Shown here one piece after another: positions 15,473-36,539 of a DNA stretch of 36,539 nt. The stretch is from positions 1 through 36,539 of the forward strand of contig JBOGDY010000001.1 of NCBI GenBank assembly GCA_050742955.1, written 5' to 3'. Origin of the DNA: Actinomycetes bacterium (GTDB lineage Bacteria; Actinomycetota; Actinomycetes; JACCUZ01). The stretch's first letter is position 1, and every line of letters starts with the position of its first letter. The notes under the pieces were generated by a model. That model had not been told where the DNA came from. It did no database searches and saw only the letters and a list, made by a program, of their open reading frames with translations. The translations under genes were made by a program, and so were the position numbers.

Positions 15473-18202
15473 TCAGGAGCCGCTGGTCGATACCCGCGGC
15501 TTCGCCCGCAGCCATGCGCGGTAGGCCTCGTCGACGGCCCAGACGACAAGTGGGAAAGGCGCGATGAGCGCTAGGACATCCCAGGGCAGCGGTGCCGTCT
15601 GCATGATCGTGTTGGCCGCAGGCAGGTAGACGAGAGCGGCGGTGAAGACGAGCTCGAAGGCGATGCCCCAGAGCAACATGGGGTTGGAGAGCAGCCCGAC
15701 GGAGCGCAGGGAGGCATGCGCCGTCCGAGCCGCAACTGCGGTACCCACCTGGCAGGCGACGATCCCCGCGAAGGTCGCCGTGGTGGCCTGCAGGTAGGCG
15801 TGGTGCAGCGGGGATCCGCTTTCCGTCGGGTCCCCTGGTCGCCACCCGGCCCGGTACAGCGTGTAGAAGAACGCCCCCATGACGAGCACGGCCGAGATCC
15901 CGCCCAGCAGCAGCCATGCCCGAATGAGCATCTCGCGTGTGACCACCGACTCGCGTGGCGGCCGAGGCGGCTTCTGCATGATGCCCGGCTCCGCGGGCTC
16001 ACGTCCGAGCGCCAGGGCCGGCATGGTCTCGGTGCCGAGGTCTATGGCCAGGATCTGCGCGACCGTGAGCGGCAACGGCACGGCGCCACCCGAGAGCGCG
16101 AAGGCCAGGAAGGGCACGACCTCGGGCACGGCGTGGGCGAAGATGTAGAGGATGAACTTGCGCACGTTGTCGTAGACCCGGCGCCCCTCCTCGACAGCGT
16201 CCACGATGGTGGCGAAGTTGTCGTCGGTGAGCACCACGGTCGCCGCCTCGCGCGCGACGTCCGTGCCCGCTCGGCCCATGGCCACGCCGATGTCGGCCCG
16301 GCGCAGCGCGGGCGCGTCGTTCACTCCGTCGCCGGTCATCGCGACGACCTCGCCGGCGTCCTGAAGCACGTCAGCGATGCGGAGCTTGTCCTCAGGGCTG
16401 CTGCGCGCGCACACCACCTCTTCCCGACCGGTCATGATCGATGTCAGCTGTGCATCGGTCATCCCGGCGGTGTCCGCACCGCTGACCAGCCGAAGCCCGT
16501 CGACGCCGATGCCCACCTGCCGAGCGATCTCCGCCGCGGTGTCGCCGTTGTCGCCGGTGAGGACGTGCACCCGCAGGCCGGCCGAGTGACACCGCGCGAC
16601 GGCCGGGCCAACCTCGGCGTGGGGCGGATCGAGCAGCGCGACCATGCCGAGCAGCCGGAGGTCACACTCGGCGTCGTGCCGGTGCTTCGGCCAGGGAAGG
16701 CTGCCGAGCTCGCGGTCCGCGACTGCCAGGACGCGCAGTCCTCGCCCAGCGAGCTCGTGGACGCGCGCGACGGCGGCCTGCCGCGCCGCATCGTCGAATG
16801 GAGCCGTCCCTCCGCCCTCACACAATCGCCGGGTACAGCGCTCGAGCACGGCTTCCGGTGCCCCTTTGACGTGCAGAGCCGTCCCGTCGGGGCCGGTGTC
16901 CACCGTCGACATGAGCCGGAGCTGCGCGTCGAACGGGTAAAGGCGCCGTCGTGCCTGGTCACGGGCGGCCGGGTCGACCCGCACACCGAGCAGCTCAGCG
17001 GCCTCGAGGACCGCAGTCTCGGTGGGGTCGCCGCCCTCCGCGGTCGATCCGTACGAGGTGGTCGTGCAGGCCACCATTGCCCGGGCGAAGACCCGTTCCG
17101 CGGCCCCCGCGCCCATTGCTCCTGGCTCGACATCCCTGCCGGCAACCCACATGGCCGCCGGTCGCATGCGGTTCTGGGTGATGGTCCCGGTCTTGTCCGA
17201 GCAGATGACGGTCGTCGACCCGAGCGTCTCGACGGCCGAGAGCCGCCGCACGACTGCTCCGCGCCGGGCGAGGGATCGGACGCCCACAGCCAGGGCGAGG
17301 GTGATCGTTGGCAGCAGCCCTTCCGGGACATTGGCGACGAGCAGACCCACGGCGAACAGGAAGGAGTCCTTGACCGTCAGCCCTGCGCTCAGACCGAGAG
17401 GGAAGAAGGCCAGCCCGATCGCGACCGCCACTGCCGCGATGAGCCACGCGATCCGCTTCACCTGGCGTTCCAGCGGGCTCACGTCGCGCGTCACCCGCTG
17501 CGACAGCGAGGCGATGCGGCCGAGCTCCGTGCGGTCACCGGTCGCGTAGACGAGCGCATGTGCGGATCCAGAGGTGCATGTCGTGCCGCTGAACACGAGG
17601 TCGGTCGCCTGCAGGACCGGCACGGCACGCGCCGTCGGGTTGGGGGTCCGAGTCTGCGGTGTGGACTCCCCGGTCAGCGTCGACAGATCCACCTCGATCT
17701 CGCCGGTGAGCAGCCGCCCGTCGGCGGACACCCGTTGGCCCTCGCTCACGACGAGGACGTCACCCGGTACGAGCGTCTGTACGTCGAGCACAACGGCCGT
17801 CCCGTCCCGCAGCGCCGTCGCCTGCTGCGGCAGGTAGCGACGCAGAGCCTCGACTGCTCGTTCCGCCTGACGCTCCTGCGCAAAGGCGAAGGCCGCGTTG
17901 AGGAGAATGACGGCGGCGATGGCCCAGCCCAGCACGGGCGTCCCCGAGACGAAGGCCAGCAGGCTGGCCGCAGCCAGCAACAGCGCGAGCGGGTGGACGA
18001 CCTGGGCCACGAGCTCGCCGAGCCAGGTGCTGCGCGCCTGGCGGGTCAGCTCGTTCCGACCGAAGCGCGCGAGCCGCCGCTCGGCCTCCCGGGTGGTGAG
18101 CCCGGCCCGGCTCGCCCGCAGCTCGTGCAACAGCACGTCGGCTGGTGCGGCGGGGTCGGGCGGTCCTACGTCATCGCGGGGAGGCGGGCCCGGCGTGCCC
18201 AT
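15473..18202 (-). CDS. P2-type cation-transporting P-type ATPase, Ca2+/Mg2+-type and CtpF-like.
   Basis: It carries TGES (LTGESTP), the phosphorylation site [13 protein letters not shown], the TM4 PEGL motif ([11 protein letters not shown]), TGDN (LTGDNGDTA) and the hinge [22 protein letters not shown]. Confidence 0.93.
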
Positions 18203-18230
18203 GATGACTCCTCTCGTGGCTTGCCACGCG

Positions 18231-20932
18231 TCAGCGCAGGCGGCGCAGCTCCGGCAACGGCCCCTCGGGCGTCGGAGCGAGGCGCAGCCGTACGTCGGTG
18301 GCGACCGCGCCCGTGCGGCTGGCCATGACGGGGTTCAGGTCGAGCTCGGCGACCTCCGGCACGTCGTCGGCCAGCCTCGCGACGCGCAGCAGCAGGTCGG
18401 ACAGGGCGTCGACATCGCAGCGGGGTGAGCCGCGGTAGCCGAAGAGCAAGGGACTGCACCGCAGGTCGCGCACCATCGCGGCCGCATCGACATCGGTGAG
18501 GGGCAGGATGCGGAACGCCTGGTCACCCAGGACTTCCGTCCAGACGCCACCCATCCCGAGCACCAGGACGGGACCGAAGGTGGGCTCTTGGACCACGCCG
18601 ACGAGCAGCTCGACCTGACCGGCCAACATCGGCTCGACGAGGACGGAGCCGTCGCCAACCTCAGCGACGCGCTCGAAGGCCGTGCGCACCTCGTCGTCGT
18701 CGCCCAGGTTCAGGGCGACCCCGCCGACGTCGCTCTTGTGGACGACGGCCGGATCGGCCGTCTTCAGGACGACGGGATAGCCGATCGACCTGGCCGCCTC
18801 CACTGCGCCCACGGCGTCCGTGGCGCGCCGAAGGGAGACCATCTCGATTCCGTAGGTGGCGAGAAGCTCGCGCGCCGTTTCGGCCGGCAGCCAGCCGCCC
18901 TCCGGCCGGCCCGCCAGTGCTCGTGCCACGACGCCCCGGGCCTCGGCCGCGCGGATCCCGGCCAGGTCCGGCACCACCCCACGACTGGATCGACGCCAGC
19001 GCCCGTAGCGCACGGCGTGGCCGAGGGCACGCACCGCCGACTCCGGGAACTGGTAGACCGGGACCGGCCGCGCCCCCTTCTCGTCCAGCAACGGCGCCGA
19101 ATCCGGACGACCCAGGACCACGGCGACCGTGGGCAGCACGCTCCTCGCGACGACATCGAGCATGGCGTCGGGATCGTTGGCCCGGGTCGCGGCGACGACG
19201 GCGACCACCGCATCGACCTCGCCGCTGCCGGCCACCTCTTCGAGTGCTGCCGACAGGTCGCGGGCCGTCGCACCTGCGCCGAGATCGATGGGGTTGTCCT
19301 GCCCGCGCGGCCCGGGCAGCCGCTGCCGCAACGCCTCGGACAGGATGGGGACCTCGAGACCCGCCGACTGGGCGGCATCGCTGGCCAGGACGCCCGCCCC
19401 ACCCGCGTTGCCGATCACGGCGATCCTCCCACCATCGGGAACGGGTTGGACGTCCAGGAGCCGGGCGGTGTCAATCAGATCCTCGACGGTGTCCAGGCGC
19501 AGCACACCGGCCTGCGCGAAGAGTGCGTCGACGGCGGTGTCGGGGGAGGCAGCCGCTGCCGTGTGGGAGCGTCCGGCCCGGCGCCCTCCGGCCGACCGAC
19601 CGCCCTGACGACCAGGACAGGCTTGGTCGCGGACACCCGCCTGGCCAGCCGGGCGAACTTACGGGGGTTGCCCAGGGACTCGAGGTAGAGAGCGATCACG
19701 TGCACACGCTGGTCGTGCCACCAGCGCAGCAGGAGGTCGTTGCCGCTTACGTCGGCCTTGTTCCCGAGCGAGACCATGCTGGCGACACCGAGCCGGGCGC
19801 GACTCGCGACATCGACGAGAGCGATGGCGACCGCGCCCGACTGCGCGGCGATGGCCAGGTGGCCGGGCTGTGGGCGGGTAGGCGCGAACCAGGCCTCGAG
19901 CGACACCTCGGGGTCGGTGTTGAGCAACCCGATGCAGTTCGGGCCCACCAGCCGCGTACCGCTGGTCCGAGCCGATCGCACCAGCCGCTCCTGCAGCTGG
20001 AGACCGGCCCCGCCCAGCTCGGCCAGCCCCGAGGACAGGATGACTACGGCCCGGACGCCGGCCCGTCCGCAGTCGTCGATCACGTCCTCGAGCGCCGCCA
20101 CGGGCACGGACACGACGGCCAGATCCACCTGACCGGGGATCTCGCTGACGGTGGGGTAGGCGGTCAGTCCTGCGACCTGGCGGGCCCGCGGGTTGACCGG
20201 GTAGACGCTCCCGGCGAAATGACCGGCCACGATGCTGCTCAGCACCTCGTGACCGACGCTGCCCGGGCGACGGCTGGCGCCCACGACGGCCACCGTGCGC
20301 GGTTCGAGCAATGGGTGCAGGGACGCAAGCTCGGCCCGCTCCTCGCGCGTGTCCATCGCCAGGAGCGTCTCCTCGTCTGCGGTGGTGGCGAGCCGGAACC
20401 GCGAGACGCCGTCGGCGAGGGAGCTCCGGCTGCGTAGCCCCGAGTCGGCAAAGACTGCGGCCATCCGCCGGTTGTCGACCAGCACGTCGCCGACCAGCTC
20501 GCGGACGCCGACCGACCGGGCCGCGGCGGCAAGGTGCTCGAGGAGCAGAGTGCCCACGCCCTCACCCTGGTGCGCGTCCTCCACGAGCAGCGCGACCTCC
20601 GCCTCGTCGTCACCGGTCCGCTCGAAGCCCGCGACTGCGACCACCACGCCGCCGAGGAGTGCGACCAGGGCAGCGTGGTCCCGGTCCGTCGGCCTCACCA
20701 CGCTCTCCACGTAGTCGTCGGCGACATTCCGGTTGAGGGCGAAGAACCTGAAGTAGAGGCTGCGGTCGGTGACGCGGGAGTTCAGGGCCCGGAGCGCATC
20801 GGCGTCGGCTCGGGTGACGGGCCGGATCCGGACGATCTGCCCCTTGGCGGTGAGCGCCTCGCACCCGGTGGGCGGCGTGTCCACGGGCGTCAGCCCGGTG
20901 CCCGGACGCGCGCCGGTCTCGGTCGGGATCAC
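18231..20932 (-). pseudogene. PatA-like GNAT acetyltransferase / NDP-forming acyl-CoA synthetase fusion, interrupted by an apparent 1-nt frameshift near 19600-19612.
   Basis: ORF 19475..21121 encodes GNAT (QGEGVGTLLLEHL), a CoA-binding domain (VAVVGASRRPGSVG) and a ligase-CoA domain. ORF 18231..19505 encodes the ATP-grasp part. The third frame reads continuously GGRSAGGRRAGRSHTAAAAASPDTAVDALFAQAGVLRLDTVEDL, joining the two. The proposed start GTG (20932) overlaps the upstream stop as GTGA. Confidence 0.75.
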
Positions 20933-21699
20933 GGCCGTCGCTCCGTCCGCGAGGCGCGTAGGGCGGGCACGACGACCATGGCGACACCCGTCAACATGCC
21001 AAGGGCGCCGGCGACGAGCAGGCCCGCCGCCACATCGTCGAGGAGGGGGACCGTGGCAGCGGCCCGCACCCGGACGGCGATCCCCGGCACAGCGTCCTGG
21101 TTCATCGTGACGATGGTCCACGACCCGTCACGCGGCCGCCACGTCACGCTCTGCGGGCCCGTGCCGACGGACTGGGCGACCCAGATGTCGGCCGTCTCCG
21201 GCAGCTGCCGGGGAGGCCCTCCCGGGTGGTCCACGCGGATGCGACCGTTGAACGGCAGGTCGGCGAAGGTCGCGTGCCGCACGCCCTCGAGATATCTCGC
21301 GGCGTCGGCGGTGCGAGCGATGCCCAGGAACAGGAGACGCCCGGGGTCGGCTGGGGTGACCTGCACCCTGACCGTGCCCACCAGCCTGTCCACACCAGGT
21401 CCCCAGCCAGCCTGTCGGAGATCCATCGGACCTCCGTCCACTGCAAAGCCGGCGGTGGCGAAGGACTCGGAGCCGAACGACAGGAAGCCGGCCGCGTCCC
21501 GTTGGGTCCGGTCCACGAGCAGCGCAGCAGCGCCGGCCACGAGCAGCACCAGCCCGACGATGCTCGAGATGTTCCCGACGACCACCGACGCCACCCGGCC
21601 CGCCGTCCACCCACGGCGCGACCGGTGCCCCGAACGCCCGGAGCCGGGCGGTGGTACCGCGGCCGCCGGTGGCCCATACGCCGGGGGCGCGGTCGTCAT
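20929..21699 (-). CDS. Membrane protein of unknown function: N-terminal Pro-rich tail, a TM helix, a ~190-aa extracytoplasmic domain and a C-terminal TM helix.
   Basis: ORF 20929..21708. ATG 21699 lies 9 nt after AAGGAG. TM segments are VVVGNISSIVGLVLLVAGAAALLV and AAGLLVAGALGMLTGVAMVVV. Confidence 0.65.
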   Translation of the reverse strand: MTTAPPAYGPPAAAVPPPGSGRSGHRSRRGWTAGRVASVVVGNISSIVGLVLLVAGAAALLVDRTQRDAAGFLSFGSESFATAGFAVDGGPMDLRQAGWGPGVDRLVGTVRVQVTPADPGRLLFLGIARTADAARYLEGVRHATFADLPFNGRIRVDHPGGPPRQLPETADIWVAQSVGTGPQSVTWRPRDGSWTIVTMNQDAVPGIAVRVRAAATVPLLDDVAAGLLVAGALGMLTGVAMVVVPALRASRTERRP

Positions 21700-21748
21700 C
21701 GGCACCATCTCCTTCGTCGAGCTCAGGGGGATCCGGCGGCGCCGGCCG

Positions 21749-22192
21749 TCACGTCCCGCTCGGCTGCTCGGACTCCTCGGGCTGCTCGAGACTCACGTCT
21801 CGCAACGCCCGCAGCAGGTCCGACCCGGTGACGATGCCCACCGGCCGCCTCTCCGCGTCGACGACCGGTAGCGCGTCGTCGCCACGGGCGAGCATGAGCC
21901 GCGCGGCCTCACGGACGTTCAGGGCGGGCGTGACCTCGCACGGGACCTGCGTGTACGACTGGAGCACCTCGGTCACCTGTCTGGTGCGCAGGGTCAGCGC
22001 GGCCGTGAGGCACTCCCCCATGGCGACCCGATCGCTGAGCACGCCGACGAGAGTCCGTGCCCCGTCGACCACGACGAGGTGACGCAGTCCGCTGACCATG
22101 AACTGGTCGACGGCCTGCCACACGGTGTCGGTGTCCCGCACCGTCACGACCGGTGCCGACATCACCTCGGCGACCGATGGTGCATCGACCAT
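21749..22192 (-). CDS. CBS-pair domain protein (Hrp1-like).
   Basis: It has two CBS repeats (VMSAPVVTVRDTDTVWQAVDQFMVSGLRHLVVVD... and ...ARLMLARGDDALPVVDAERRPVGIVTGSDLLRAL). The ATG lies 4 nt after the ADH stop, with GAAGGAG inside the ADH 3' end. Confidence 0.85.
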   Translation of the reverse strand: MVDAPSVAEVMSAPVVTVRDTDTVWQAVDQFMVSGLRHLVVVDGARTLVGVLSDRVAMGECLTAALTLRTRQVTEVLQSYTQVPCEVTPALNVREAARLMLARGDDALPVVDAERRPVGIVTGSDLLRALRDVSLEQPEESEQPSGT

Positions 22193-22195
22193 TGC

Positions 22196-23245
22196 TCACT
22201 CCTTCGTCAGCACGACCTTGAGCGCACCGCTCGCGCCTGCGTCCGAGAAGACCTCGTACGCCGTGAGCATCTGGCCCAGGGAGAACGTGTGCGTCACCAT
22301 CGGCGCCAGGTCGAGCTGCCCGTCGCGGAGCAGGCGCAGCAGCGTCGGCGTAGTCGAGGTGTCGACCAGCCCCGTCGTGATGGTGACGTCCTTGATCCAC
22401 AGGTCCTCCAGGTGCAGCGTGGCCGGCTTCCCGTGGACTCCGACGTTCGCGACCCGCCCTCCCGGCCGCACCAGCCGGGTGCACAGCTCGAAGGTCTCGG
22501 GGAGGCCGACGGCCTCGATGACCACGTCCGCGCCGAGCCCGTCGGTCAGGTCGAGGACAAGCGTCCTGGCCTCGTCCGGGTCGCTCATGTTGCTGACCAG
22601 CACGTCCGCGCCGACGCCCTTGGCGGCGTCCAACCGGCCGGACAGCGGGTCGATCGCCACCACGCGCGACGGCGAGAAGAGCTTGGCGGTCATGATCGCC
22701 GCGAGGCCGATCGGGCCGGCTCCGACCACCGCCACCGTCGCGCCTGGACTGACACCCCCGGCGAGCACCCCGACCTCGTAGCTCGTCGGGAGGATGTCGG
22801 CCAGCAGCACTGCCGACTGGTCGGGCAGGCCGACCGGCAGCCGGTGCAGTGACAGGTCCGCGAAAGGGACCCGCGCGTACTCGGCCTGGACACCGTCGAT
22901 GAGGTGCCCGAGCTGCCACCCGCCGCCCCCCAGGCACTGCCCGTAGCGCGCCTCCCGGCAGAAGCGACAGACGCCGCACGCGCTGATGCAGGAGACCAGG
23001 ACGCGGTCGCCCGGGGTCACCGTCCGCACCGCGGAGCCGACGGCCTCGACCGTCCCGACCGCCTCGTGCCCGAGGATCCGCCCCTCGGCCACCTCCGGCA
23101 CATCGCCCTTGAGGATGTGCAGGTCCGTCCCGCAGATGGTGACGGCGTCGATGCCGACGATCGCGTCCGTGTCGTCCAGCAGACCGGGGTCCGGGACCTC
23201 GTCCCAAGCCTTGCTGCCGTTCCCCTGATAGACCAAGGCACGCAT
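22196..23245 (-). CDS. Zinc-dependent medium-chain alcohol dehydrogenase.
   Basis: ORF 22196..23584. The internal ATG at 23245 is preceded by GGAGGTGG. It has GHEAVGTVEAVG (catalytic Zn), the C-x2-C-x2-C-x7-C structural Zn motif (CISACGVCRFCREARYGQC) and the Rossmann motif VVGAGPIGL. Confidence 0.9.
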   Translation of the reverse strand: MRALVYQGNGSKAWDEVPDPGLLDDTDAIVGIDAVTICGTDLHILKGDVPEVAEGRILGHEAVGTVEAVGSAVRTVTPGDRVLVSCISACGVCRFCREARYGQCLGGGGWQLGHLIDGVQAEYARVPFADLSLHRLPVGLPDQSAVLLADILPTSYEVGVLAGGVSPGATVAVVGAGPIGLAAIMTAKLFSPSRVVAIDPLSGRLDAAKGVGADVLVSNMSDPDEARTLVLDLTDGLGADVVIEAVGLPETFELCTRLVRPGGRVANVGVHGKPATLHLEDLWIKDVTITTGLVDTSTTPTLLRLLRDGQLDLAPMVTHTFSLGQMLTAYEVFSDAGASGALKVVLTKE

Positions 23246-28197: not shown

Positions 28198-29298
28198 ATG
28201 CGCGCTCCCGAGTTCATGTCGGCACCCGTGGTCACCGTGACGCCGCTGACCCCGATCACCGAGGCTGGGGCGTTGCTCCTCGGCCATGACATCACCGCGG
28301 CACCGGTCGTCGACGACGACCAGCGGCTGGTAGGCATCGTCAGCGAGTCCGATCTGCTCCGCGGTCGTGTGGGACCGGACCCGCGCACCCATGCGCTGCC
28401 CACATCCATCGACGAGTCGGAGCCACCGCACACGGTGGGCGAGGTGATGACGCACAAGGTCGTGGCGCTGCCCTACACGGCCGACGAGGCCGACTTCGCC
28501 GGCGCCATGCTCGACCATCGGGTCAAGAGCGTCCCCGTCGTGTCCGGCGGCCGGGTCGTCGGCATCGTGAGCGTCAGCGACCTGCTGCGCACAAGGGTGC
28601 GCAGTGACGACGACATCGCGACGGATGTCCGCGCACGCCTCCGGGAGTACGCCGAGGGCCGCGAGCCATGGACGACCACAGTCGCCGACGGGGTCGTGAC
28701 GATCGCCGGACCGATGGCGGCACCGCAGCGACGGGTCGCCGTGCTCCTCGCCCAGACCGTGCCCGGGGCGGTGCGGGTCCGCACCGACGCGGGAGCAGAA
28801 CATGCCCCGCCCGACCGGTCCGGGCGTCCCCTGACAGCACCGGCGGACCATCGCGAGCTGCGGGTCCTCGGCCTCGAGGAATGCTTGGACCGGCTGGCCG
28901 GAGTGCCCGTCGGGCGGCTGGCCTTCATGCACGACGGCGAGCCGACGGTGCTGCCGGTCAACCACGGCGTGGACGGCCTCGACGTCGTCTTCCGAACCAC
29001 CTGGGGTGCCAAGCTGCAGGTGGCCCAACACCAGGGACAGGTGGCGTTCGAGGTCGACGGCTGGGATAGCGACACGGAGTGCGGTTGGAGCGTGCTGGTC
29101 AAGGGCACCATCGGCATCGTCTACGAGACCGAGGACACCGACCGCTACGACAGCCTCGGCGTGCCCTCCTGGACCGGACTGGACGACCAGGCGTTCTGGC
29201 TCCGGCTACGACCAGCGGAGGTCACCGGCCGCGAGTTCGGGCCGCGGGCGCCGCGGGAAGACCTGGCTGACCCACGTGTCGCTCCCCCGCATCAGTGA
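28198..29298 (+). CDS. Fusion protein: CBS pair, BON-like domain and a pyridoxamine 5'-phosphate oxidase family (Pyridox_ox_2-type) domain.
   Basis: ORF 28144..29298. ATG 28198 is preceded by GGAGG. The N-terminal two CBS repeats include VVDDDQRLVGIVSESDLL and VVSGGRVVGIVSVSDLL. The middle is BON-like (DIATDVRARL...VADGVVTIAGPM...VPGAVRVRT). The C-terminus is the PNPOx split-barrel type (ECLDRLAGVPVGRLAFMHDGEPTVLPVNHGVDGLDVVFRTTWGAKL...GWSVLVKG...LRLRPAEVTGREF). Confidence 0.82.
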   Translation: MRAPEFMSAPVVTVTPLTPITEAGALLLGHDITAAPVVDDDQRLVGIVSESDLLRGRVGPDPRTHALPTSIDESEPPHTVGEVMTHKVVALPYTADEADFAGAMLDHRVKSVPVVSGGRVVGIVSVSDLLRTRVRSDDDIATDVRARLREYAEGREPWTTTVADGVVTIAGPMAAPQRRVAVLLAQTVPGAVRVRTDAGAEHAPPDRSGRPLTAPADHRELRVLGLEECLDRLAGVPVGRLAFMHDGEPTVLPVNHGVDGLDVVFRTTWGAKLQVAQHQGQVAFEVDGWDSDTECGWSVLVKGTIGIVYETEDTDRYDSLGVPSWTGLDDQAFWLRLRPAEVTGREFGPRAPREDLADPRVAPPHQ

Positions 29299-29336: not shown

Positions 29337-30230
29337 TCACGCCGTTGGCCGGTGGTCGTGCACGATGGCGACCGGGCTGGTCGCGCGGTGGAGGACGCCG
29401 TGGCTCACCGACCCGAGCAGCAGGCTTCGCAGCGCGCCCCTGCCGCGGCATCCGACGACGACGAGTCGCGCTTCGCGTGCTGCCGCGACGAGCGCCGGGG
29501 TGGCGTGCGACTGAAGAGTCTTCAGCTCGACAGGCACAGCGGGGTGCTTCTCGCGCCAGGGGGCCAGGGTCTCGTCCAGCATCGCCAGCTTCCTCTCGGC
29601 CGTGAGGTCCGGGTCGGGCATGACCGGGATCCGGATCGCGGGGCCGTTCGGCAGCGGCACGGTCCACGTGTGCAGGGCCGTCAGCGGTTCACCGGTCTCA
29701 GCGGCGTACCGGAAGGCGTAGTCGATCGCCGACTGCGCGGACGGTGACGTCTCGACGCCGACGACGACGCCGTGTCGGGTGGGCTCCGCCTCCCCCGGCA
29801 CGGGGACCGCCACCACCGGAGCGTGCGCGTGCGTGGCCACGTGCAGGGTCGTGGATCCGATGACAAGGTCGGCGAACCCACCCGTGCCGCGCGTGCCCAG
29901 CACGACAGTGTCCGCGTGTCCGGACTCGTCGACCAGCGCATCGACGGCCGAGCCCGCCTCGAGTCGCGTCGAGACCTGAACCCCGGGGTAGGCCTGACGG
30001 GCCTGTGCCTCTGCTGCGTTCATCATCCGCTGCATCGCCTCGCGCAGGCCGTTCCCGAAGTCCGAGTAGTAGCCGCCGGCGCGGATGTCGTAGATGGACG
30101 GCTCGTAGGCGTGTGCGAGCCGCACCGGCGCCTGTCGTCGGGCGGCGAGCTCCAGGCCCCAGGCCAGTGCTGCTTCGCTCGGCGGCGATCCGTCGATGCC
30201 GATGACGATTGGTTCGCGTGCGTCGCTCAT
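29337..30230 (-). CDS. Tandem universal stress protein (two UspA domains).
   Basis: ORF 29337..30287. The internal ATG at 30230 is preceded by AGGAGG. It has duplicated USP modules (VIGIDGSPPSE...VLGTRGTGGFADLVIGSTTLHVATHAHAPVVAV and VVGVETSPSA...VVGCRGRGALRSLLLGSVSHGVLHRATSPVAIV). Confidence 0.9.
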   Translation of the reverse strand: MSDAREPIVIGIDGSPPSEAALAWGLELAARRQAPVRLAHAYEPSIYDIRAGGYYSDFGNGLREAMQRMMNAAEAQARQAYPGVQVSTRLEAGSAVDALVDESGHADTVVLGTRGTGGFADLVIGSTTLHVATHAHAPVVAVPVPGEAEPTRHGVVVGVETSPSAQSAIDYAFRYAAETGEPLTALHTWTVPLPNGPAIRIPVMPDPDLTAERKLAMLDETLAPWREKHPAVPVELKTLQSHATPALVAAAREARLVVVGCRGRGALRSLLLGSVSHGVLHRATSPVAIVHDHRPTA

Positions 30231-30333
30231 GACGCCTCCTTGCCTGCCGAAGCGCCGGGCATCCGCTGCCCGTACGGACCAGCACACTCCGTCGCCCGCC
30301 CTGCAGACCAGGGCCGATCGCCGCCCCGCCGGG

Positions 30334-30347
30334 GTGACCTTGGTCCC
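30334..30347. promoter_or_regulatory. DosR/DevR-type box B2, on the USP-proximal side of the USP/GH65 divergent region.
   Basis: GTGACCTTGGTCCC, one mismatch from the perfect palindrome of B1 apart from the central dinucleotide. It is centred 110 nt upstream of the USP ATG (30230). Confidence 0.6.
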
Positions 30348-30370
30348 GCGCGGCCGGTCGTCGGCGCGAT

Positions 30371-30384
30371 AGGACCAAGGTCAC
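30371..30384. promoter_or_regulatory. DosR/DevR-type box B3, on the GH65-proximal side of the same divergent region.
   Basis: AGGACCAAGGTCAC, which matches the reverse complement of B2 at 13 of 14 positions. It is centred 125 nt upstream of the GH65 ATG (30503). Confidence 0.55.
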
Positions 30385-30502: not shown

Positions 30503-32911
30503 ATGACCGAGTGGCTGCTGCGCTACGAGGGGTTCGAGCCCGAGGAGGAACGGGTTCGCGAGGTGCTGTGCACGCTCGGTAACGGCCGGTTCGCCACCCG
30601 TGCTGCCGCTCCTGAGTCCTGCGCCGACGGCGTGCACTACCCGGGCACCTACGCAGCAGGCATCTTCAACCGCGTCCCGGCCGACATCGAGGGCCATCAC
30701 GTCGAGCACGAGAGCATGGTCAACCTGCCGGACTGGCAGTCCCTCCGTTTTCGGGTGGAGGACGGGGACTGGCTGACCCCGTCCAGTCCCACGACGACCG
30801 ACTACGTCCAGGAGCTGGACCTTCGGAGGGGCCTGCTGACACGACGGTTCCGCGTCGTGGACGGTGAGGGCCGGCGGACGGCAGTCGCTCAGCGCAGGTT
30901 CGTCTCGATGGCCGACCCGTTCGCCGCCGGCCTCGACGCGACGTTCGTGGCGGAGAACTGGTCCGGACGCCTGGTTGTGCAGTCCGGCATCGACGGAGAT
31001 GTGGCCAACCGTGGAGTCGCCCGTTATACCGGGCTCGGGGACGTGCACCTGCGGGTGACCGGGGCGGAACGGCTCGGCTGCTCCGTGGTCGCGCTCGATG
31101 TCGAGACGCGCCAGTCCCGGGTTCGGGTGAGCATGGCCGCTCGACACCGAGTGCTGCTGGACGGACAGGTCTCAGCGACCCCGCAACGACCCCGGACAGT
31201 CCGTAAGAGCGGCTACATCGGGCTGGAGTTCTGCCTCGGCGTACGAGAGGGCGAGCAGCACACCCTCGAGAAGGTCGTGGCCGTCTACACCTCGCGTGAC
31301 CGAGCCGTGAGCGAACCAGGCGCCGCGGCGCGGACCGAGGCAGGGAGCCTGCCGGAGCTCGATCATCTCCTCTCACGTCACGTGCTCGCGTGGGACCACC
31401 TCTGGGAACGGTGCTACGTCCGGATCGACGCGGCCGAGTCGGCGACTCGCGCGCTCAACCTGCACCTGTTCCACCTGCTCCAGACGGTCAGCCGGCACAG
31501 CATGGAGCTCGATGTCGGCATCCCCGCCAGGGGACTGCACGGCGAGGCGTACCGCGGCCATGTGTTCTGGGACGAGATCTTCGTGTTCCCGTTCCTGAAC
31601 CTGCGAATGCCGGAGCTTGCCAGGGCCCTGGTGCTCTACCGCTGGAGGCGGCTGCCCCAGGCCCGGGTGGCGGCCAGGGAGGCCGGGTTCCGGGGCGCGA
31701 TGTTCCCCTGGCAGAGCGGGTCCGACGGTCGTGAGGAGGCCCCCGCGGTGCACCTCAACCCACGGTCTGGCCACTGGATCACCGACAACTCGCACCTGCA
31801 ACGGCACATCAACGTGGCCGTGGCCTACAACACGTGGCGGTACTACGAGGCCAGCGGCGACCGTGACTTCCTTTCCCAGTTCGGCGCCGAACTGATCCTG
31901 GACATCGCGCAGTTCTGGGCGAGCGCGGCAAACTACGACCGGGTCGGCGACCGCTACGACATCCGCAATGTGATGGGTCCGGATGAGTACCACGACGGCT
32001 ACCCCTGGCGGGATCGTCCCGGCCTGGACAACAACACGTACACGAACCTGATGGTGGTGTGGACCCTGCGCAGAGCGCTCGCCTGCATCGCGCTCCTGCC
32101 CGACCGACGCCGGTCGGAGCTGCTGAGCCTATTGGGTATCCGGCGGGAGGACGTGGAGCGCTGGGAGCACATGACTCGGAAGATGCGGCTGTGCTGGGTC
32201 GCCGCCAACGTGCTTGCCCAGTTCGAGGGCTTCGAGCGGCTGCGTCCGTTCCCGTGGACCGAGTACGTCGAGCGGTATGGCGACATCACCAGGCTGGACC
32301 GGATCCTGGAGGCCGAGGGCGACTCGCCCAACAACTACCAGCTCGCGAAGCAGGCCGACGTACTGATGCTCTTCTACCTGCTCTCTGCGGACGAGCTGGC
32401 GGACCTCCTGCACCGGCTCGGATACCAGTACACGCCCCGGCTGATCCCCAGCACGGTGGACTTCTACCGTCGGTGCACCTCCCACGGCTCCACACTCTCC
32501 AAGGTCGTCCATGCCTGGGTCATGGCGCGAAGCGACCGCCCGGCGGCCTGGCAGTTCTTCCTCGACGCCCTCGAGGCGGACGTCGCGGGCCATCTTGGCG
32601 GCACGACGGGCGAGGGGATCCATCTGGGCGCGATGGCCGGCACCCTTGACCTCCTCCAACGCGCCTTCACCGGTCTGGAGACGCGCGGCGAGGTGCTGCA
32701 CCTCGAGCCGTCCCTGCCCGACGAGCTCGCCTCTATGAGCTTCCGACTCCATTACCGCCACCATCACGGCCTAGAGGTCTATGTCGACCATGACCGGGTC
32801 ATCATCAGCGGGCGGGCCCACCCCGCGCCACCGTTGACGGTGCGGGTCCGCGGCGAGGACCACCGCCTCGACCCGAGCGGTGCCGTCGAGGTGCCGCTCA
32901 CGTCTCGTTGA
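30503..32911 (+). CDS. Glycoside hydrolase family 65 protein (maltose/trehalose/kojibiose phosphorylase-type).
   Basis: At 802 aa it has the typical GH65 length. The N-terminus WLLRYEGFEPEEERVREVLCTLGNGRFATRAA and the catalytic-region motif GHVFWDEIFVFPF are characteristic of actinobacterial GH65 proteins. Confidence 0.88.
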   Translation: MTEWLLRYEGFEPEEERVREVLCTLGNGRFATRAAAPESCADGVHYPGTYAAGIFNRVPADIEGHHVEHESMVNLPDWQSLRFRVEDGDWLTPSSPTTTDYVQELDLRRGLLTRRFRVVDGEGRRTAVAQRRFVSMADPFAAGLDATFVAENWSGRLVVQSGIDGDVANRGVARYTGLGDVHLRVTGAERLGCSVVALDVETRQSRVRVSMAARHRVLLDGQVSATPQRPRTVRKSGYIGLEFCLGVREGEQHTLEKVVAVYTSRDRAVSEPGAAARTEAGSLPELDHLLSRHVLAWDHLWERCYVRIDAAESATRALNLHLFHLLQTVSRHSMELDVGIPARGLHGEAYRGHVFWDEIFVFPFLNLRMPELARALVLYRWRRLPQARVAAREAGFRGAMFPWQSGSDGREEAPAVHLNPRSGHWITDNSHLQRHINVAVAYNTWRYYEASGDRDFLSQFGAELILDIAQFWASAANYDRVGDRYDIRNVMGPDEYHDGYPWRDRPGLDNNTYTNLMVVWTLRRALACIALLPDRRRSELLSLLGIRREDVERWEHMTRKMRLCWVAANVLAQFEGFERLRPFPWTEYVERYGDITRLDRILEAEGDSPNNYQLAKQADVLMLFYLLSADELADLLHRLGYQYTPRLIPSTVDFYRRCTSHGSTLSKVVHAWVMARSDRPAAWQFFLDALEADVAGHLGGTTGEGIHLGAMAGTLDLLQRAFTGLETRGEVLHLEPSLPDELASMSFRLHYRHHHGLEVYVDHDRVIISGRAHPAPPLTVRVRGEDHRLDPSGAVEVPLTSR

Positions 32912-32921: not shown

Positions 32922-33326
32922 TCACAGGTCGTGCTCGGCCAGCTCGGCCAACGTGGCCGTGACCAGCCAAGCAGGGGTCAGGTCCCTGGCCGACATCAGA
33001 CGCAGCTCGAGCGGGATGAGCACGTCGCGCTGCAGCGACCGGAGCCGCTCCTCACCCACGTTCTGACCGACCAGCTCGCGCGCCACGAAGGCGCGGGCAA
33101 CGCGCCAGTCGAGGGCTTCCATCTCCTCCGGCACGGGGTCGGCCGCCAGCTCGGCCACGCGGCTCGCCGAGCCGTGTGCCACCGCGTTGATCCACATCCA
33201 TGGTGCGACCTGGCCGCTTTCACCACGCGACCGGAGCCGCTCGAGGTAGCGACCCCCGAGAAAGGCCTCGACCTCATCGGCCAGCCCCGAGCCGACCTTC
33301 GGTGCGGCCCAGCGAAGGAAGGACAT
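32922..33326 (-). CDS. Hypothetical protein with an ambiguous start.
   Basis: ORF 32922..33437. Candidate starts are ATG 33326, GTG 33338 (9 nt after GGAGGG) and ATG 33437. No motif was recognised. GC3 is moderately high throughout. Confidence 0.45.
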   Translation of the reverse strand: MSFLRWAAPKVGSGLADEVEAFLGGRYLERLRSRGESGQVAPWMWINAVAHGSASRVAELAADPVPEEMEALDWRVARAFVARELVGQNVGEERLRSLQRDVLIPLELRLMSARDLTPAWLVTATLAELAEHDL

Positions 33327-33554
33327 CCAGCTTCGCACCGTCCTGCTCCCTCCTGAGGCGCCCTGTGACTGGCACCAGCACATCGCGCAGGCTGACCCCG
33401 CCACCACGGGCAGATGCCCCGACGCTGATGGGGCCAACGTCCTCCGTGCACGGGACGGACGGCACGGGGCACACAGCGAGAGGCGGGAGGGTCCACCGCC
33501 GCTCAGGCAGCGGGCCGAGACATCGATTCCAGCCCGTCCGCGGTTCGCGAAACA

Positions 33555-33568
33555 GGGCCGAAGGTCAC
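33555..33568. promoter_or_regulatory. DosR/DevR-type box B5 upstream of the hypothetical gene at 32922.
   Basis: GGGCCGAAGGTCAC is the reverse complement of B4 (GTGACCTTCGGCCC). The exact 16-mer is shared with 28116-28131. Confidence 0.5.
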
Positions 33569-33607: not shown

Positions 33608-33982
33608 TCAGCCGAACCACGGCGTGGCACCCTGGATGGCGGCTGTCCGCCGTGACCGGCCAGGGATCTCTCGACTCGTCGCAGTGTGGGACACCAGGGT
33701 GCGACCCTGCGGTTCAACCGTAAGGCTGCCTCCCAGCCGGCCGACCAGGTCCTGAAATCGGGCCGTGACGGCTGCGACCGCTGGTTCGGCGTTCTGGGCC
33801 CCACGGACGTCGACGACGATCGTGCGCGCACCGGCCTCGACGAGCCGGCACAGCTCTATGGACAGGTCCATCGCCGTCGTGTCATCTGCGAGCCCACGAA
33901 GCACGACGGTGGCGTGCGGACCCTGACGTCGGGTGTTGATCAACATGGCCGTCGCCTCATCCCTGAAAGTGCCCCGTTCCAT
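33608..33982 (-). CDS. STAS-domain (anti-sigma-factor-antagonist-like) protein.
   Basis: ORF 33608..34060. Candidate starts are ATG 33982 and ATG 33946. The pattern HATVVLRGLADDTTAMDLSIELCRLVEAGARTIVVDVRGA...LVGRLGGSLTV resembles SpoIIAA/RsbV-type STAS proteins. This is a weaker call than the others. Confidence 0.5.
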   Translation of the reverse strand: MERGTFRDEATAMLINTRRQGPHATVVLRGLADDTTAMDLSIELCRLVEAGARTIVVDVRGAQNAEPAVAAVTARFQDLVGRLGGSLTVEPQGRTLVSHTATSREIPGRSRRTAAIQGATPWFG

Positions 33983-34063: not shown

Positions 34064-34077
34064 GGGACGGATGGCCC
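34064..34077. promoter_or_regulatory. DosR/DevR-type box B6 between the divergent STAS and hsp20 genes.
   Basis: GGGACGGATGGCCC, centred 72 nt upstream of the hsp20 ATG (34142) and 88 nt upstream of STAS ATG 33982. Confidence 0.45.
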
Positions 34078-34141: not shown

Positions 34142-34579
34142 ATGGGTGCTGTGTCTAGGCGCGAAACGACGTCGTCACCGCTGGCCGACTTGATGAACTG
34201 GATCGAGTCGGGGTGGCCGAACATCGGCGGGTGGCCGGGCGAGACCAGTCAAGCGATCCGGATCGAGGACCGGCTCGAGGACGACCGTTACGTCGTCCGC
34301 GCCGAGCTGCCCGGCATCGACCCGGAGAAGGACGTGCAGATCACCATCGCCGACGGTGTGCTCAGCGTCTCCGCGGAGCGCCATGAGCAGGTCAGCGAGA
34401 AGGGCAGGTCCGAGTTCCGCTATGGGTCCCTGCTGCGACGCGTGAACCTGCCCAAGGGCGCGCAGGAGGAGTCGGTCGTGGCGCGCTACGAAGACGGGAT
34501 CCTGGAGATCTCTGTGCCGGTCGCGGTGGACCGGCCAGAGCCGCGGTCCATCCCGGTGTCGCGCGCTCCATCCGGCTGA
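34142..34579 (+). CDS. Hsp20 / alpha-crystallin family small heat-shock protein (HspX-like).
   Basis: ORF 34094..34579. ATG 34142 is preceded by AGGAGGA. It has the alpha-crystallin core IRIEDRLEDDRYVVRAELPGIDPEKDVQITIADGVLSVSAER...GSLLRRVNLPKGAQEESVVARYEDGILEISVP. Confidence 0.9.
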   Translation: MGAVSRRETTSSPLADLMNWIESGWPNIGGWPGETSQAIRIEDRLEDDRYVVRAELPGIDPEKDVQITIADGVLSVSAERHEQVSEKGRSEFRYGSLLRRVNLPKGAQEESVVARYEDGILEISVPVAVDRPEPRSIPVSRAPSG

Positions 34580-34593
34580 AGCCCTACGGACAC

Positions 34594-34622
34594 GGGAGGT
34601 CGCGGCTGGGGCGCGACCTCCC
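34594..34622 (+). terminator. Strong stem-loop after hsp20.
   Basis: Perfect 11-bp stem GGGAGGTCGCG / CGCGACCTCCC with a 7-nt loop, 15 nt after the stop codon. Confidence 0.6.
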
Positions 34623-34827
34623 GCCCGGGCGCACGATCGAGGAGGTGCCAGCCATGGGTGAGAAGGAGCAACACGAGGCGAGCGCCGAAGCACGCCGCCA
34701 TCTGACGTCCCGGCCTACCGAGTCGGGCAAGCACGAGGACCTGGTCCAGCGGCGACTCGGTGTGGCCTTCTATCGCGAGGTTCACGGTCGGGACCAACAG
34801 CCCAGCCAAGCGGACCCAGGAGGAACC

Positions 34828-35022
34828 ATGCACGCAGTCCCGGGCGAGCGCATCATCGTGAGGCGCAGCCACCTCGGCGAACCTGCCAGCGACGGCGAAA
34901 TCATCGAGGTACGGGGGCCCGATGGGAGTCCCCCGTTCCTGGTCCGGTGGTCCGACACCGGGAACGAGGCACTCGTCTTCCCCGGGTCGGACGCGGAGAT
35001 CCACCACTGCGGCGACCGCTGA
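34828..35022 (+). CDS. DUF1918 domain protein.
   Basis: ORF 34645..35022. ATG 34828 is preceded by AGGAGGA. The sequence GERIIVRRSHLGEPASDGEIIEVRGPDGSPPFLVRWSDTGNEALVFPGSDA matches the DUF1918 pattern. The in-frame alternative ATG 34654 also has a GGAGG SD, but the extension has lower GC3. Confidence 0.75.
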   Translation: MHAVPGERIIVRRSHLGEPASDGEIIEVRGPDGSPPFLVRWSDTGNEALVFPGSDAEIHHCGDR

Positions 35023-35077
35023 GCGGCAACCAGCGGTGCGCGCGTGGCGACCATCCGGGCCGCTCGGCCGTAGAGTT

Positions 35078-35091
35078 GGGATCTTCGGCCC
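35078..35091. promoter_or_regulatory. DosR/DevR-type box B7 upstream of the Acg-family nitroreductase gene.
   Basis: GGGATCTTCGGCCC shares its CTTCGGCCC half with B4 and B5. It is centred 45.5 nt upstream of ATG 35130. Confidence 0.5.
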
Positions 35092-35129: not shown

Positions 35130-36113
35130 ATGACGACAGGACAAGCCGACTTCACCGCCGCGGTCGACCTGGGCCGACTGGCTCCGTCGGTGCACAACAC
35201 CCAGCCCTGGCTCTTCCATGCGGAAGATGACGTTCTCATCCTGCGACGCGACAGCGCCCGGAGCCTTCCAGTGCTCGACCCCACGTTCCGCCAACAGACC
35301 ATCAGCTGCGGTGCGGCGTTGCACCTGGTCCGGCTTGGACTACGGCTGCAGGGCTTCGATGTCGTCGTGCAGCCCCACCCGGTCCCGGGTGACAGCACGA
35401 TCCTCGCCGCCGTCCGGGCAGTGCCCGGCGCAGCCGCAACAGCCGAAGAGGTCGTGCTGGAGCACGCCGCGCGGCACCGCCACACGCAGCGAGAACCCTT
35501 CGACCCGCAACCCGTGGACGCGGAGACCGTCACCGCCATGCGCGATGCCGCGCAGCAGGAGGGCGCGTGGGTGCGGTTCCTGACCGAGCCCGCCGAGCAG
35601 ATCGCGCTGACCGTGCTGCTGTCGCACGCGGACGAGGCCGAGGAGGCGGACGAGGCGTATCGCGAGGAGCTTTCCGCGTGGACGCACCGTCCGTCTAGCG
35701 AAGGCGACGGCGTTCCACCGCAGGCAGCTCCCCCCGTGCGCGGGCGGGCGAGCAACGTGCGGCTACGGGACTTCAGCGCGCCGGCCGACGATGGCCAGGA
35801 GACGCCTCGGGTCACCGAGGACGACCCGGCGCCTCCAGCGGAGCACCCGTTGGTGGTGGTACTGGGGACGGCCGGCGACGGACCTGATGACTGGTTGGTG
35901 GCGGGACAAGCCCTCAGCACCCTGCTGTTGCACGCCGCCGTCGACGGCGTGCAGGCATCGCCCCTGGGTCAGGTGCTCGACCAGCCGTGGTCGCGGCGAC
36001 GGCTGGGTGGCGAGCTGAGGCTCGTGGGCTACCCCCAGATGGTGCTGCGGCTGGGCCACGCCCGGCCCGGCCCGGACACGCCGCGCCGCCCGATGACAGA
36101 CGTCCTGCGGTAG
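35130..36113 (+). CDS. Acg-family FMN-binding nitroreductase-like protein (Rv2032/Rv3131-type).
   Basis: It has the N-terminal signature APSVHNTQPW, a ~327-aa two-lobed nitroreductase-like layout and the C-terminal PQMVLRLGHA motif typical of the Acg family. Confidence 0.86.
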   Translation: MTTGQADFTAAVDLGRLAPSVHNTQPWLFHAEDDVLILRRDSARSLPVLDPTFRQQTISCGAALHLVRLGLRLQGFDVVVQPHPVPGDSTILAAVRAVPGAAATAEEVVLEHAARHRHTQREPFDPQPVDAETVTAMRDAAQQEGAWVRFLTEPAEQIALTVLLSHADEAEEADEAYREELSAWTHRPSSEGDGVPPQAAPPVRGRASNVRLRDFSAPADDGQETPRVTEDDPAPPAEHPLVVVLGTAGDGPDDWLVAGQALSTLLLHAAVDGVQASPLGQVLDQPWSRRRLGGELRLVGYPQMVLRLGHARPGPDTPRRPMTDVLR

Positions 36114-36147
36114 CTCGGCCCCCATTCCGATCACGCCCGGGTCGCGT

Positions 36148-36539
36148 TCAGCGTGACGGTACGGCTGCAGGGCTGTGCCCGAGCTCGAGCACGATTTGCG
36201 GGTAGGCGCCGGCGCACACCTCACGCCGCACGCGCTCCCGTCGCGTCGGGTCTTCCAACGCCCACGTGAAGAAGCGGACCGCGACCCATTCGGTCGTCGC
36301 GGTCAGCAGCAGTCGCTGTAGCGCCTGCCCTGCGCTCAGCCAGTCCACCGGCCTGTCCGAGACCGTGGTGAGCACCTCTATGCGCGCGGCCACGGCCGTG
36401 TCGCCGACCCAGGGCGCCCGCAGCCCTTGGGGCCGAGCCGGGTCGCGATCGGAAGAGTCCTCCGCAGCCGACAACTGCTCGTCGAGTGCCGCCAGTCGCG
36501 GCCCGACGGGCACGGAGAGCAGGGCAGCACCCTCCGCCG
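36148..36539 (-). CDS. Acg-family nitroreductase-like protein. Only the C-terminal part is in the window and the 5' end lies beyond the edge.
   Basis: The frame is open to the window end (no stop upstream of ORF 36148..36513). Its C-terminus ...WLSAGQALQRLLLTATTEWVAVRFFTWALE...YPQIVLELGHS parallels the C-terminus of the convergent paralogue (WLVAGQALSTLLLHAAVDGVQASPLGQVLD...YPQMVLRLGHA). Confidence 0.75.
   Translation of the reverse strand, partial: AEGAALLSVPVGPRLAALDEQLSAAEDSSDRDPARPQGLRAPWVGDTAVAARIEVLTTVSDRPVDWLSAGQALQRLLLTATTEWVAVRFFTWALEDPTRRERVRREVCAGAYPQIVLELGHSPAAVPSR

Follow-up and report, generated by a model that had tools for sequence, protein, structure and literature searches.

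Does the right-hand part of a 36,539-bp contig from an uncultured actinomycete encode a dormancy regulon of the kind known from DosR (DevR) in Mycobacterium tuberculosis and OsdR in Streptomyces coelicolor? The contig (JBOGDY010000001.1, assembly GCA_050742955.1), analysed in its entirety and hereafter called the window, belongs to a metagenome-assembled genome deposited as "Actinomycetes bacterium" and annotated with the Prokaryotic Genome Annotation Pipeline (PGAP). An initial annotation had described its right 21 kb, from position 15473 onwards, as an island of this type, with a gene content closely mirroring the DosR regulon of M. tuberculosis. In our analysis, the palindromic boxes upstream of its transcription units, an adjoining two-component system and the encoded gene families support this reading, and the region very probably represents the larger part of a DosR/DevR-OsdR-type regulon cluster.

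Genes were called using the G+C content at third codon positions (GC3), and families were assigned by Pfam, NCBIfam and PDB sequence searches. An exact-sequence look-up of the FMN-binding (flavin mononucleotide-binding) oxidoreductase Acg1, encoded near the right end of the window, led to a 32.7-kb contig of assembly GCA_975255145.1 (locus L001), which is 100% identical to the window over an 11,410-bp overlap and continues for another 9.6 kb to the right. The examined DNA thus comprises the window and this extension, approximately 46 kb in total. From position 15473, the window contains a leftward operon for a zinc-dependent alcohol dehydrogenase (Zn-ADH), a CBS pair protein, a protein with two transmembrane segments, a Pat-like enzyme and a P2-type ATPase. 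Divergent from it is a rightward operon encoding a tandem universal stress protein (USP), an ABC ATPase and an FtsX/MacB permease. Further right follow a CBS-BON-PNPOx fusion, a second tandem USP (USP-B) divergent from a glycoside hydrolase family 65 (GH65) gene, and two small orphan genes, and the right end holds genes for Hsp20, a DUF1918 protein and Acg1, and the convergent 3' part of Acg2. A composition shift indicative of horizontal acquisition of the cluster was looked for across the window and none was found (G+C content ~70% overall, range 0.68-0.73); "island" is therefore used here in the sense of a cluster only. Rfam and tRNA scans of the window yielded zero matches.

Boxes and the adjoining two-component system

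Urem et al. 2016 (PMC5069765) reported a consensus for OsdR binding, AGGGCCGATCGGCCCT, and tabulated the sites predicted in S. coelicolor. We built a symmetrised position weight matrix (PWM) solely from the S. coelicolor sites in their Table 1 and scanned the window and its 9.6-kb extension. Nine matches scored at least 10. The intergenic DNA of the right part (2.06 kb) accounts for six of them and coding sequence (~42 kb) for the other three, and the intergenic DNA of the left part (1.70 kb) has none. When the intergenic segments were dinucleotide-shuffled (300 trials), 0.27 matches were obtained on average and never more than 2, compared with the six found. With a local degenerate pattern, GGGMCSWWSGKCCC, allowing up to two mismatches, a box was found 43-225 bp ahead of each of the ten transcription units, and the box was also among the top words of an unbiased k-mer search across intergenic DNA. 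The earlier statement that the same palindrome precedes nearly every unit is thus borne out. A loose search for GGGACN4GTCCC with two mismatches was not enriched (43 found vs. 59 expected from shuffles) and was therefore replaced by the PWM of published sites and the degenerate pattern. The boxes in the window are listed without strand:

23356-23369: perfect palindromic box GGGACCTAGGTCCC, 0 mismatches to GGGMCSWWSGKCCC
28116-28129: box GTGACCTTCGGCCC, one mismatch, PWM score 10.2, 76 bp upstream of the CBS-BON-PNPOx gene
30311-30384: three boxes (30311, 30334 and 30371, with two, one and two mismatches) in the divergent USP-B/GH65 promoter region
33430-33568: three boxes (33430, 33452 and 33555) upstream of the gene for a 138-aa protein
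34064-34077: box GGGACGGATGGCCC, PWM score 11.9, between the gene for a 112-aa protein and Hsp20, 72 bp upstream of Hsp20
34790-34803: possible, doubtful box GGGACCAACAGCCC, one mismatch, 25 bp before the probable DUF1918 start
35057-35091: two tandem boxes (35057 and 35078), 21 bp apart, upstream of Acg1

The box at 23356 is shared by two divergent operons, at a distance of 117 bp from the start of Zn-ADH and 64 bp from that of USP-A, and the top PWM score of 13.5 belongs to the site at 33554, upstream of the 138-aa gene. Tandem pairs with a spacing of 21-23 bp are found at three promoters (30311/30334, 23 bp; 33430/33452, 22 bp; 35057/35078, 21 bp), where the background chance of a partner box at pair spacing is 0.8%. 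The DevR promoters of M. tuberculosis contain at least two tandem boxes, primary and secondary, in helical phase at ~21 bp (Chauhan 2011; PMC3177182), and the secondary Dev boxes are poorly conserved in that organism too. The doubtful GGGACCAACAGCCC site falls in the low-GC3 N-terminal extension of the DUF1918 open reading frame (ORF). Manual inspection for -10 hexamers at a fixed distance from the boxes revealed no consistent placement. In the extension, boxes precede the divergent pair of Acg2 and the flavodoxin-kinase operon, the DoxX gene, and the operon of the second ATPase, the regulator and the hydrolase.

In this extension, the remaining part of Acg2 is followed by genes for a flavodoxin, the kinase (573 aa), DoxX, an acetyl-CoA hydrolase/transferase, the regulator (219 aa), a second P-type ATPase and, lastly, acetate kinase; flavodoxin-kinase and P-ATPase2-regulator-acetyl-CoA hydrolase form operons. 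The two signalling proteins are:

L001:16483-17142, minus strand: DevR-like response regulator, 219 aa, REC and GerE domains, ~5 kb beyond the window end
L001:12729-14450, plus strand: GAF-GAF-HisKA_3-HATPase_c kinase, 573 aa, ~1.3 kb beyond the window end

The best PDB match of the regulator is DevR (3C3W, 2.3e-73), followed by VraR (5.9e-45), and its gap-free alignment with DevR shows 122/203 identical residues (60%), the same level as reported for OsdR by Urem et al. (PMC5069765). D54, T82 and K104 are retained and the recognition helix EKTVKNYVS (K179, K182, N183) is identical to that of DevR, so that the phospho-acceptor Asp and the Lys179, Lys182 and Asn183 expected of a DevR/OsdR orthologue are all present. 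The roles of these conserved residues are established from DevR-DNA structures. The kinase matches best to the heme GAF-A domains of DosT (2VZW, 7.9e-47) and DevS (6.8e-43) in the PDB; its His143 and Tyr165 align with the heme-ligating His149 and the distal Tyr171 of DevS. It thus has the architecture, proximal His and distal Tyr of DosS/DosT/OsdK-type kinases, with heme binding predicted from sequence. In NCBIfam, a DevR-, DevS- or CtpF-specific model was reached by none of the proteins.

Kinase and regulator are encoded on opposite strands in separate, box-preceded operons ~2 kb apart, with the acetate kinase gene adjacent. A further one-mismatch box, AGGACCTTGGTCCC, lies at L001:17222-17235 (composite coordinates 42351-42364) inside the 3' end of the second ATPase gene, ~80 bp before the regulator start. 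It may constitute an internal autoregulated promoter, which we take to be possibly analogous to the internal devR promoters within Rv3134c.

From these features we infer the following mode of regulator binding, activation and induction. The heme-binding tandem-GAF kinase of the DosS/DosT/OsdK type would sense O2, NO, CO or the redox state and phosphorylate the NarL-family DevR-like regulator. The phosphorylated regulator would then bind the 14-16 bp palindromic GGGMCSWWSGKCCC boxes, which are often in tandem ~21 bp apart, cooperatively so where they are tandem, and activate approximately ten transcription units, including its own operon and that of the kinase. As the regulator and kinase operons both have boxes, we propose positive autoregulation. 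The induced products would comprise ATP-binding USPs, two P2-type cation pumps, Acg-type FMN proteins, the Hsp20 chaperone, CBS and PNPOx-like proteins, Zn-ADH, a GH65 disaccharide phosphorylase/hydrolase, a MacB-type ABC exporter and enzymes of acetyl-CoA and acetate metabolism.

Gene content of the cluster and its left border

Each family named in the initial annotation was found at its place by the Pfam, NCBIfam and PDB searches, although some of the more specific labels had to be revised. The right end of the window contains the following genes and a hairpin:

29337-30230, minus strand: tandem-USP protein B (USP-B; Pfam Usp twice, 1.1e-51)
30503-32911, plus strand: GH65 glycoside hydrolase/phosphorylase, 802 aa (Pfam Glyco_hydro_65N, 65m with 1.2e-122, and 65C)
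32922-33338, minus strand: orphan hypothetical protein, 138 aa, family-less, with three boxes upstream
33608-33946, minus strand: rare 112-aa protein, plausibly a divergent STAS fold (profile and model)
34142-34579, plus strand: Hsp20/alpha-crystallin small heat-shock protein (Pfam HSP20, 2.1e-19)
34595-34623, plus strand: perfect hairpin with an 11-bp stem, GGGAGGTCGCG-N7-CGCGACCTCCC, read directly from the sequence
34828-35022, plus strand: DUF1918 protein, ~64 aa (Pfam DUF1918, 2.7e-25, 88 bits vs. a cut-off of 24)
35130-36113, plus strand: Acg-family FMN-binding oxidoreductase 1 (Acg1; NCBIfam NF047509)
36148-36539, minus strand: 3' part of Acg-like oxidoreductase 2 (Acg2), cut by the contig end (NF047509, 5.5e-18)

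Acg1 scores 267 bits against NF047509 (Rv3131_FMN_oxido, Acg family; cut-off 199), covering positions 2-319 of the 319 in the model, and matches the Acg nitroreductase 2YMV in the PDB (6.9e-25). Acg2, completed from L001, reaches 161 bits at full length, below the same cut-off, and is therefore termed Acg-like rather than a certified member. Of the two Acg-family nitroreductases proposed previously, the first assignment consequently stands and the second is relaxed. Hsp20 was confirmed by Pfam at the family level, and the GH65 protein proved to be a complete enzyme with all three Pfam domains. The initial annotation attributes a GH65 domain to M. tuberculosis otsB1 as well.

The DUF1918 protein, which had been listed among the members not classically described in such regulons, required the opposite correction. 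Its start is probably the ATG at 34828, because an AGGAGG Shine-Dalgarno sequence precedes it, and its PDB match is 2A7Y (Rv2302, 7e-12). The Rv2302 homologue Rv0569 belongs to block 2 of the DosR regulon and is a footprinted DevR target with Dev boxes. As Rv2302 matches and its homologue is DevR-controlled, DUF1918 represents a classical DosR-regulon family. Between the Hsp20 and DUF1918 genes, the hairpin at 34595-34623 is terminator-like but has no T tract, and may act in transcription termination or in RNA processing.

The two near-orphan genes lie in the middle of the cluster and each is preceded by a box. Word-index homology searches with both proteins returned essentially nothing. For the 138-aa protein, no family match was found in Pfam or NCBIfam and a single homologous cluster was found among 5.8 billion proteins. 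The 112-aa protein, previously called a STAS protein, has four homologous representatives among 1.8 billion proteins in an exhaustive search. Its match to Pfam STAS_2 (E = 0.014, 16 bits) stays under the cut-off of 29.2, and its relatives also give weak STAS matches. The top Foldseek matches of a single-sequence AlphaFold2 model (predicted local distance difference test (pLDDT) score 71) are the anti-sigma antagonists RsfB, RsbS, RsbV and SpoIIAA (template modelling (TM) scores 0.50-0.55, E ~1e-3). The structural matches thus agree with the earlier label and the sub-threshold profile match does not secure it, making a STAS fold plausible but not established. One of the relatives (P0018), 2321 aa long, is a surface protein with DUF11 repeats and a CHU_C domain of type IX secretion, in which nine stretches match weakly; this match is probably spurious, a compositional or repeat artefact.

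The central part of the cluster contains the exporter operon and the fusion gene:

23426-24352, plus strand: tandem-USP protein A (USP-A; Pfam Usp twice, 3.5e-48), first gene of the operon
24360-25118, plus strand: ABC transporter ATPase of the LolD/MacB/FtsE type (Pfam ABC_tran)
25124-28060, plus strand: FtsX/MacB-type permease, 978 aa (Pfam FtsX twice, MacB_PCD)
28198-29298, plus strand: fusion of a CBS pair, BON and PNPOx-like (Pyridox_ox_2) domains (Pfam)

The prediction of two tandem-USP proteins holds, as USP-A and USP-B have two Usp domains each, and the ATP-binding motif G-x2-G-x9-G-S/T expected of the Rv2623 type is present in both USP-B domains and, in USP-A, in domain 1. M. tuberculosis Rv2623 (3CIS/2JAX) is the best PDB match of USP-A (1.7e-31). 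The ABC ATPase matches the LolD, MacB and FtsE-like models of NCBIfam, below their cut-offs. The fusion protein, which is unusual in combining three domain types in one polypeptide, contains the PNPOx-family domain noted earlier, supported by Pyridox_ox_2 and by a PDB match to the PNPOx-related FMN-binding protein 6ECI (1.5e-16); its CBS part matches Rv2626c with 8.6e-9, ranking ~19th among many CBS proteins. In the model organisms, CBS pair and PNPOx proteins are encoded by separate box-preceded or DosR-regulon genes (M. tuberculosis Rv2626c, S. coelicolor SCO0214), whereas they are fused here.

The leftward operon reads from right to left:

22196-23245, minus strand: Zn-ADH family protein (Pfam ADH_N, ADH_zinc_N), first gene of the operon
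21749-22192, minus strand: stand-alone CBS-pair protein, 147 aa (Pfam CBS twice)
20929-21708, minus strand: hypothetical membrane protein with two transmembrane segments, 259 aa (GC3 0.86; two hydrophobic segments)
19475-20932, minus strand: upstream part of the Pat-like gene with GNAT, CoA_binding and Succ_CoA_lig domains (Pfam)
18231-19505, minus strand: downstream ATP-grasp (acetate-CoA ligase beta-like) part of the Pat-like gene (Pfam ATP-grasp_5, 4.8e-67)
15473-18202, minus strand: P2-type cation-transporting ATPase, 909 aa, last gene of the operon

The Zn-ADH was taken to start at MRALVYQ, since the GC periodicity of the ORF extension ahead of it is non-coding. Its Pfam domains and the box-preceded Zn-ADH gene of S. 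coelicolor agree with its proposed match to a component of the Streptomyces OsdR cluster. The label "Hrp1-like" for the 147-aa CBS protein had to be abandoned, since Rv2626c is absent from its PDB matches at 1e-5, where 23 other CBS proteins match, leaving a generic CBS pair. The 259-aa membrane protein has no family match in Pfam or NCBIfam. The PatA-like acetyltransferase described earlier has all of its GNAT, CoA-ligase and ATP-grasp domains, but not a single intact ORF, as a single-nucleotide frameshift at ~19601-19607, in the middle of the Succ_CoA_lig domain, breaks the reading frame of what should be one polypeptide in Pat-type enzymes. In a tblastn search with a fused homologue (from locus L006), frames -3 and -2 abut at residues 464/465, and in five relatives the gene is one ORF of 905-1000 aa. 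The downstream ORF (424 aa) is identical in four independent assemblies, suggesting that the frameshift is probably real rather than an assembly error. The P2-type assignment of the 909-aa ATPase is backed by its full domain architecture (Cation_ATPase_N, E1-E2_ATPase, Hydrolase (HAD) and Cation_ATPase_C in Pfam) and by the motifs DKTGT, TGES, GDGVND and PEGL; its top NCBIfam matches are P2-type models, each under the equivalog cut-off.

In the left 15 kb of the window, which encode a sulfatase, a DUF1269 protein, two LAL-type regulators (large ATP-binding regulators of the LuxR family), a K+ channel, a holin_4_2 protein, an EAL protein and a sulfotransferase, Pfam detected no dormancy-type genes. 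The sulfatase (70-2466) and the sulfotransferase (13969-14940) flank this part and apparently have no connection with the dormancy cluster. The two LAL-type regulators (5042-7711 and 7853-10540), both large and composed of an AAA/STAND ATPase, TPR and a GerE helix-turn-helix, adjoin each other; together with the K+ channel, the holin_4_2-family protein and the EAL-domain protein that follow them, they form a regulatory neighbourhood of their own, free of boxes. At the left border of the cluster lies a 532-bp gap (14941-15472) in which no credible ORF, RNA family, promoter or terminator was found; a half-box-like AGGGCCGAAAGCCCT is located in it at 15320. A second assembly also has a contig ending near this border, at ~14833.

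Related loci and alternative explanations

The FtsX permease, chosen because its 10-kb flanks span the entire cluster, served as query in a scan of 185,579 species genomes. Of the 80 loci obtained, the closest (including Spirillospora, Mycobacteriales and Jiangellaceae MAGs, Kitasatospora and Streptomyces) are just 60-64% identical. In 28 loci with at least ~49% identity, ABC-FtsX is repeatedly found near USPs, Acg, fused Pat-like genes, P-type ATPases and Zn-ADH, with DoxX, flavodoxin, DUF1918, GH65, AckA and DosR-like regulators and kinases as further recurrent neighbours; in one of them (L008), Zn-ADH, ABC, FtsX, USP, Pat, P-ATPase and USP genes are all co-directional. In the 400 bp preceding the ABC gene, the pattern detects a box in 10 of these 28 loci and the S. 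coelicolor matrix in 13, compared with 5-6% of random 400-bp windows of the same loci, and boxes recur upstream of their Acg, DoxX, USP and regulator genes. Among 44 more distant loci, mostly from Acidimicrobiia, none has a box upstream of the ABC gene. The ABC-FtsX exporter is thus a conserved, box-preceded neighbour in other actinomycetes. As the initial annotation had held for the USP-linked exporter, whose domains we confirmed, neither it nor the Pat-like gene appears in the published OsdR site table or the M. tuberculosis regulon lists, and a full-text literature search for DosR together with FtsX found nothing.

Several observations weigh against a DosR/OsdR-type regulon in this region. 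The kinase and regulator are located on the overlapping contig of the second assembly and not on the window contig itself; the likeness to CtpF, HspX and Hrp1 reaches the family level only; and the classical members nar/narK2, tgs1, nrdZ and pfkB were not encountered within the examined 46 kb. At several promoters one box only is recognisable, compared with always at least two in M. tuberculosis, and the DUF1918 box is too near the start codon for a standard class II geometry. That the neighbourhood is a chance assembly of stress genes without common regulation, and the palindromes a product of DNA with 70% GC, would fit the failure of the loose pattern (43 vs. 59) and the background PWM matches that GC-rich genomes yield in coding DNA. 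However, such an origin is highly improbable given that six of the nine high-scoring PWM sites fall within 2.1 kb of promoter DNA (0.27 expected), that ten of ten transcription units have a box at promoter distance, and that boxes are conserved in front of orthologous genes from other genera (in 10-13 of the 28 loci vs. 5-6% of random windows).

It also appears improbable, if somewhat less so, that the DosR-like system is incidental and the boxes are bound by a different LuxR/GerE-type regulator, either one of the LAL proteins (5042-10540) or a NarL paralogue. NarL-family paralogues are numerous in actinomycetes and two GerE-domain STAND regulators are encoded 5-10 kb leftward, but the intergenic DNA around the LAL genes is without boxes, whereas the box corresponds to the DevR/OsdR consensus, precedes the operon of the DosR-like regulator itself, whose recognition helix is identical to that of DevR, and co-occurs with this regulator in related loci. 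A different role of the same wiring is a real possibility, although we consider it the less likely reading: instead of hypoxic dormancy, the system might serve development or general redox, oxidative or osmotic stress, or respond to NO or CO alone. OsdR binds Dev boxes yet controls stress and sporulation genes (Urem 2016, PMC5069765), the DosRS regulon of Mycobacterium abscessus is largely species-specific, and anaerobic respiration genes (nar, narK) are absent from the 46 kb, all of which would be compatible with another function. Pointing instead to hypoxia, the kinase shares its heme His and distal Tyr with DevS and DosT, which sense O2, NO and CO, and the USP, Acg, Hsp20, DUF1918, P2-ATPase and GH65 proteins match hypoxia-induced genes of M. 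tuberculosis.

Within the DosR/OsdR-type regulon favoured here, we tentatively suggest that the USP, MacB-type ABC-FtsX, Pat-like, P2-ATPase and Zn-ADH genes might form a box-controlled module of an ancestral actinomycete DosR-type regulon. Together with the regulator-adjacent AckA and acetyl-CoA hydrolase/transferase, such a module would make hypoxic acetyl-CoA-to-acetate metabolism, via acetyl-phosphate, and export core dormancy functions, and acetyl-phosphate might feed back on regulator phosphorylation. The USP-linked MacB-type exporter, the Pat-like enzyme, the CBS-BON-PNPOx fusion and the two orphan genes are candidate accessory members, and candidate members could be tested in culturable Kitasatospora, Streptomyces and Spirillospora relatives.

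Comparison with known regulons

The type of system is known, and the current picture of how DosR-type systems work is unchanged. The novelty is modest and lies in the compact organisation, as an almost self-contained predicted regulon with sensor, regulator and at least ten box-preceded units within ~30 kb; in lineage-specific recruits (the two orphan genes, the CBS-BON-PNPOx fusion, DoxX and flavodoxin); and in a conserved box-preceded USP/ABC-FtsX/Pat-like/ATPase/ADH module that is not part of the M. tuberculosis or S. coelicolor model regulons. The DevR/OsdR box and the core families hence reach well beyond Mycobacterium and Streptomyces.

With the DevR(DosR)-DevS/DosT system of M. tuberculosis, the cluster shares a regulator that is 60% identical and has the same phospho-acceptor residues and recognition helix, a kinase of the heme GAF-GAF type, and a palindromic box with GGGAC-type half-sites that is sometimes in tandem at 21 bp and also precedes the regulator operon. 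The shared families are the tandem USPs (Rv2623/Rv1996), Acg/Rv3131, Hsp20 (hspX), the P2-ATPase (ctpF), the CBS pair (Rv2626c), DUF1918 (Rv0569) and, according to the initial annotation, a GH65 domain (otsB1). In contrast, the genes form one cluster of at least 30 kb here, compared with nine dispersed blocks in M. tuberculosis; the regulator is co-operonic with a P-type ATPase and acetyl-CoA hydrolase rather than with a USP; and the kinase is encoded in a separate flavodoxin-kinase operon. The half-sites here are often GGGCC or GTGAC with a C/G-rich centre, and USP-ABC-FtsX, the Pat-like protein, Zn-ADH, the CBS-BON-PNPOx fusion, DoxX, flavodoxin and AckA are additional.

The OsdR/OsdK system of S. 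coelicolor (SCO0204/SCO0203, in SCO0167-SCO0219) is similarly clustered around the two-component system. The sites at 28115, 33554 and 35077 are almost identical to its consensus AGGGCCGATCGGCCCT with AGGGACCTTCGGCCC variants, and its boxes likewise precede USP, Zn-ADH, nitroreductase and PNPOx genes and the regulator itself. However, osdR and osdK form one operon, whereas regulator and kinase are on opposite strands here, and the Nar2, NarK, hemerythrin, PPDK (pyruvate phosphate dikinase) and Crp-like regulators of its cluster were not seen in the examined DNA. Conversely, the ABC-FtsX, P-type ATPase, GH65, Hsp20 and DUF1918 genes present here are missing from the OsdR site table. Finally, the DosRS regulons of nontuberculous mycobacteria of the M. 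abscessus type were defined by transcriptomics, whereas the present one is predicted from boxes and synteny in a non-mycobacterial, uncultured actinomycete; they nevertheless resemble it in combining a conserved DosRS core with a variable, lineage-specific downstream set.

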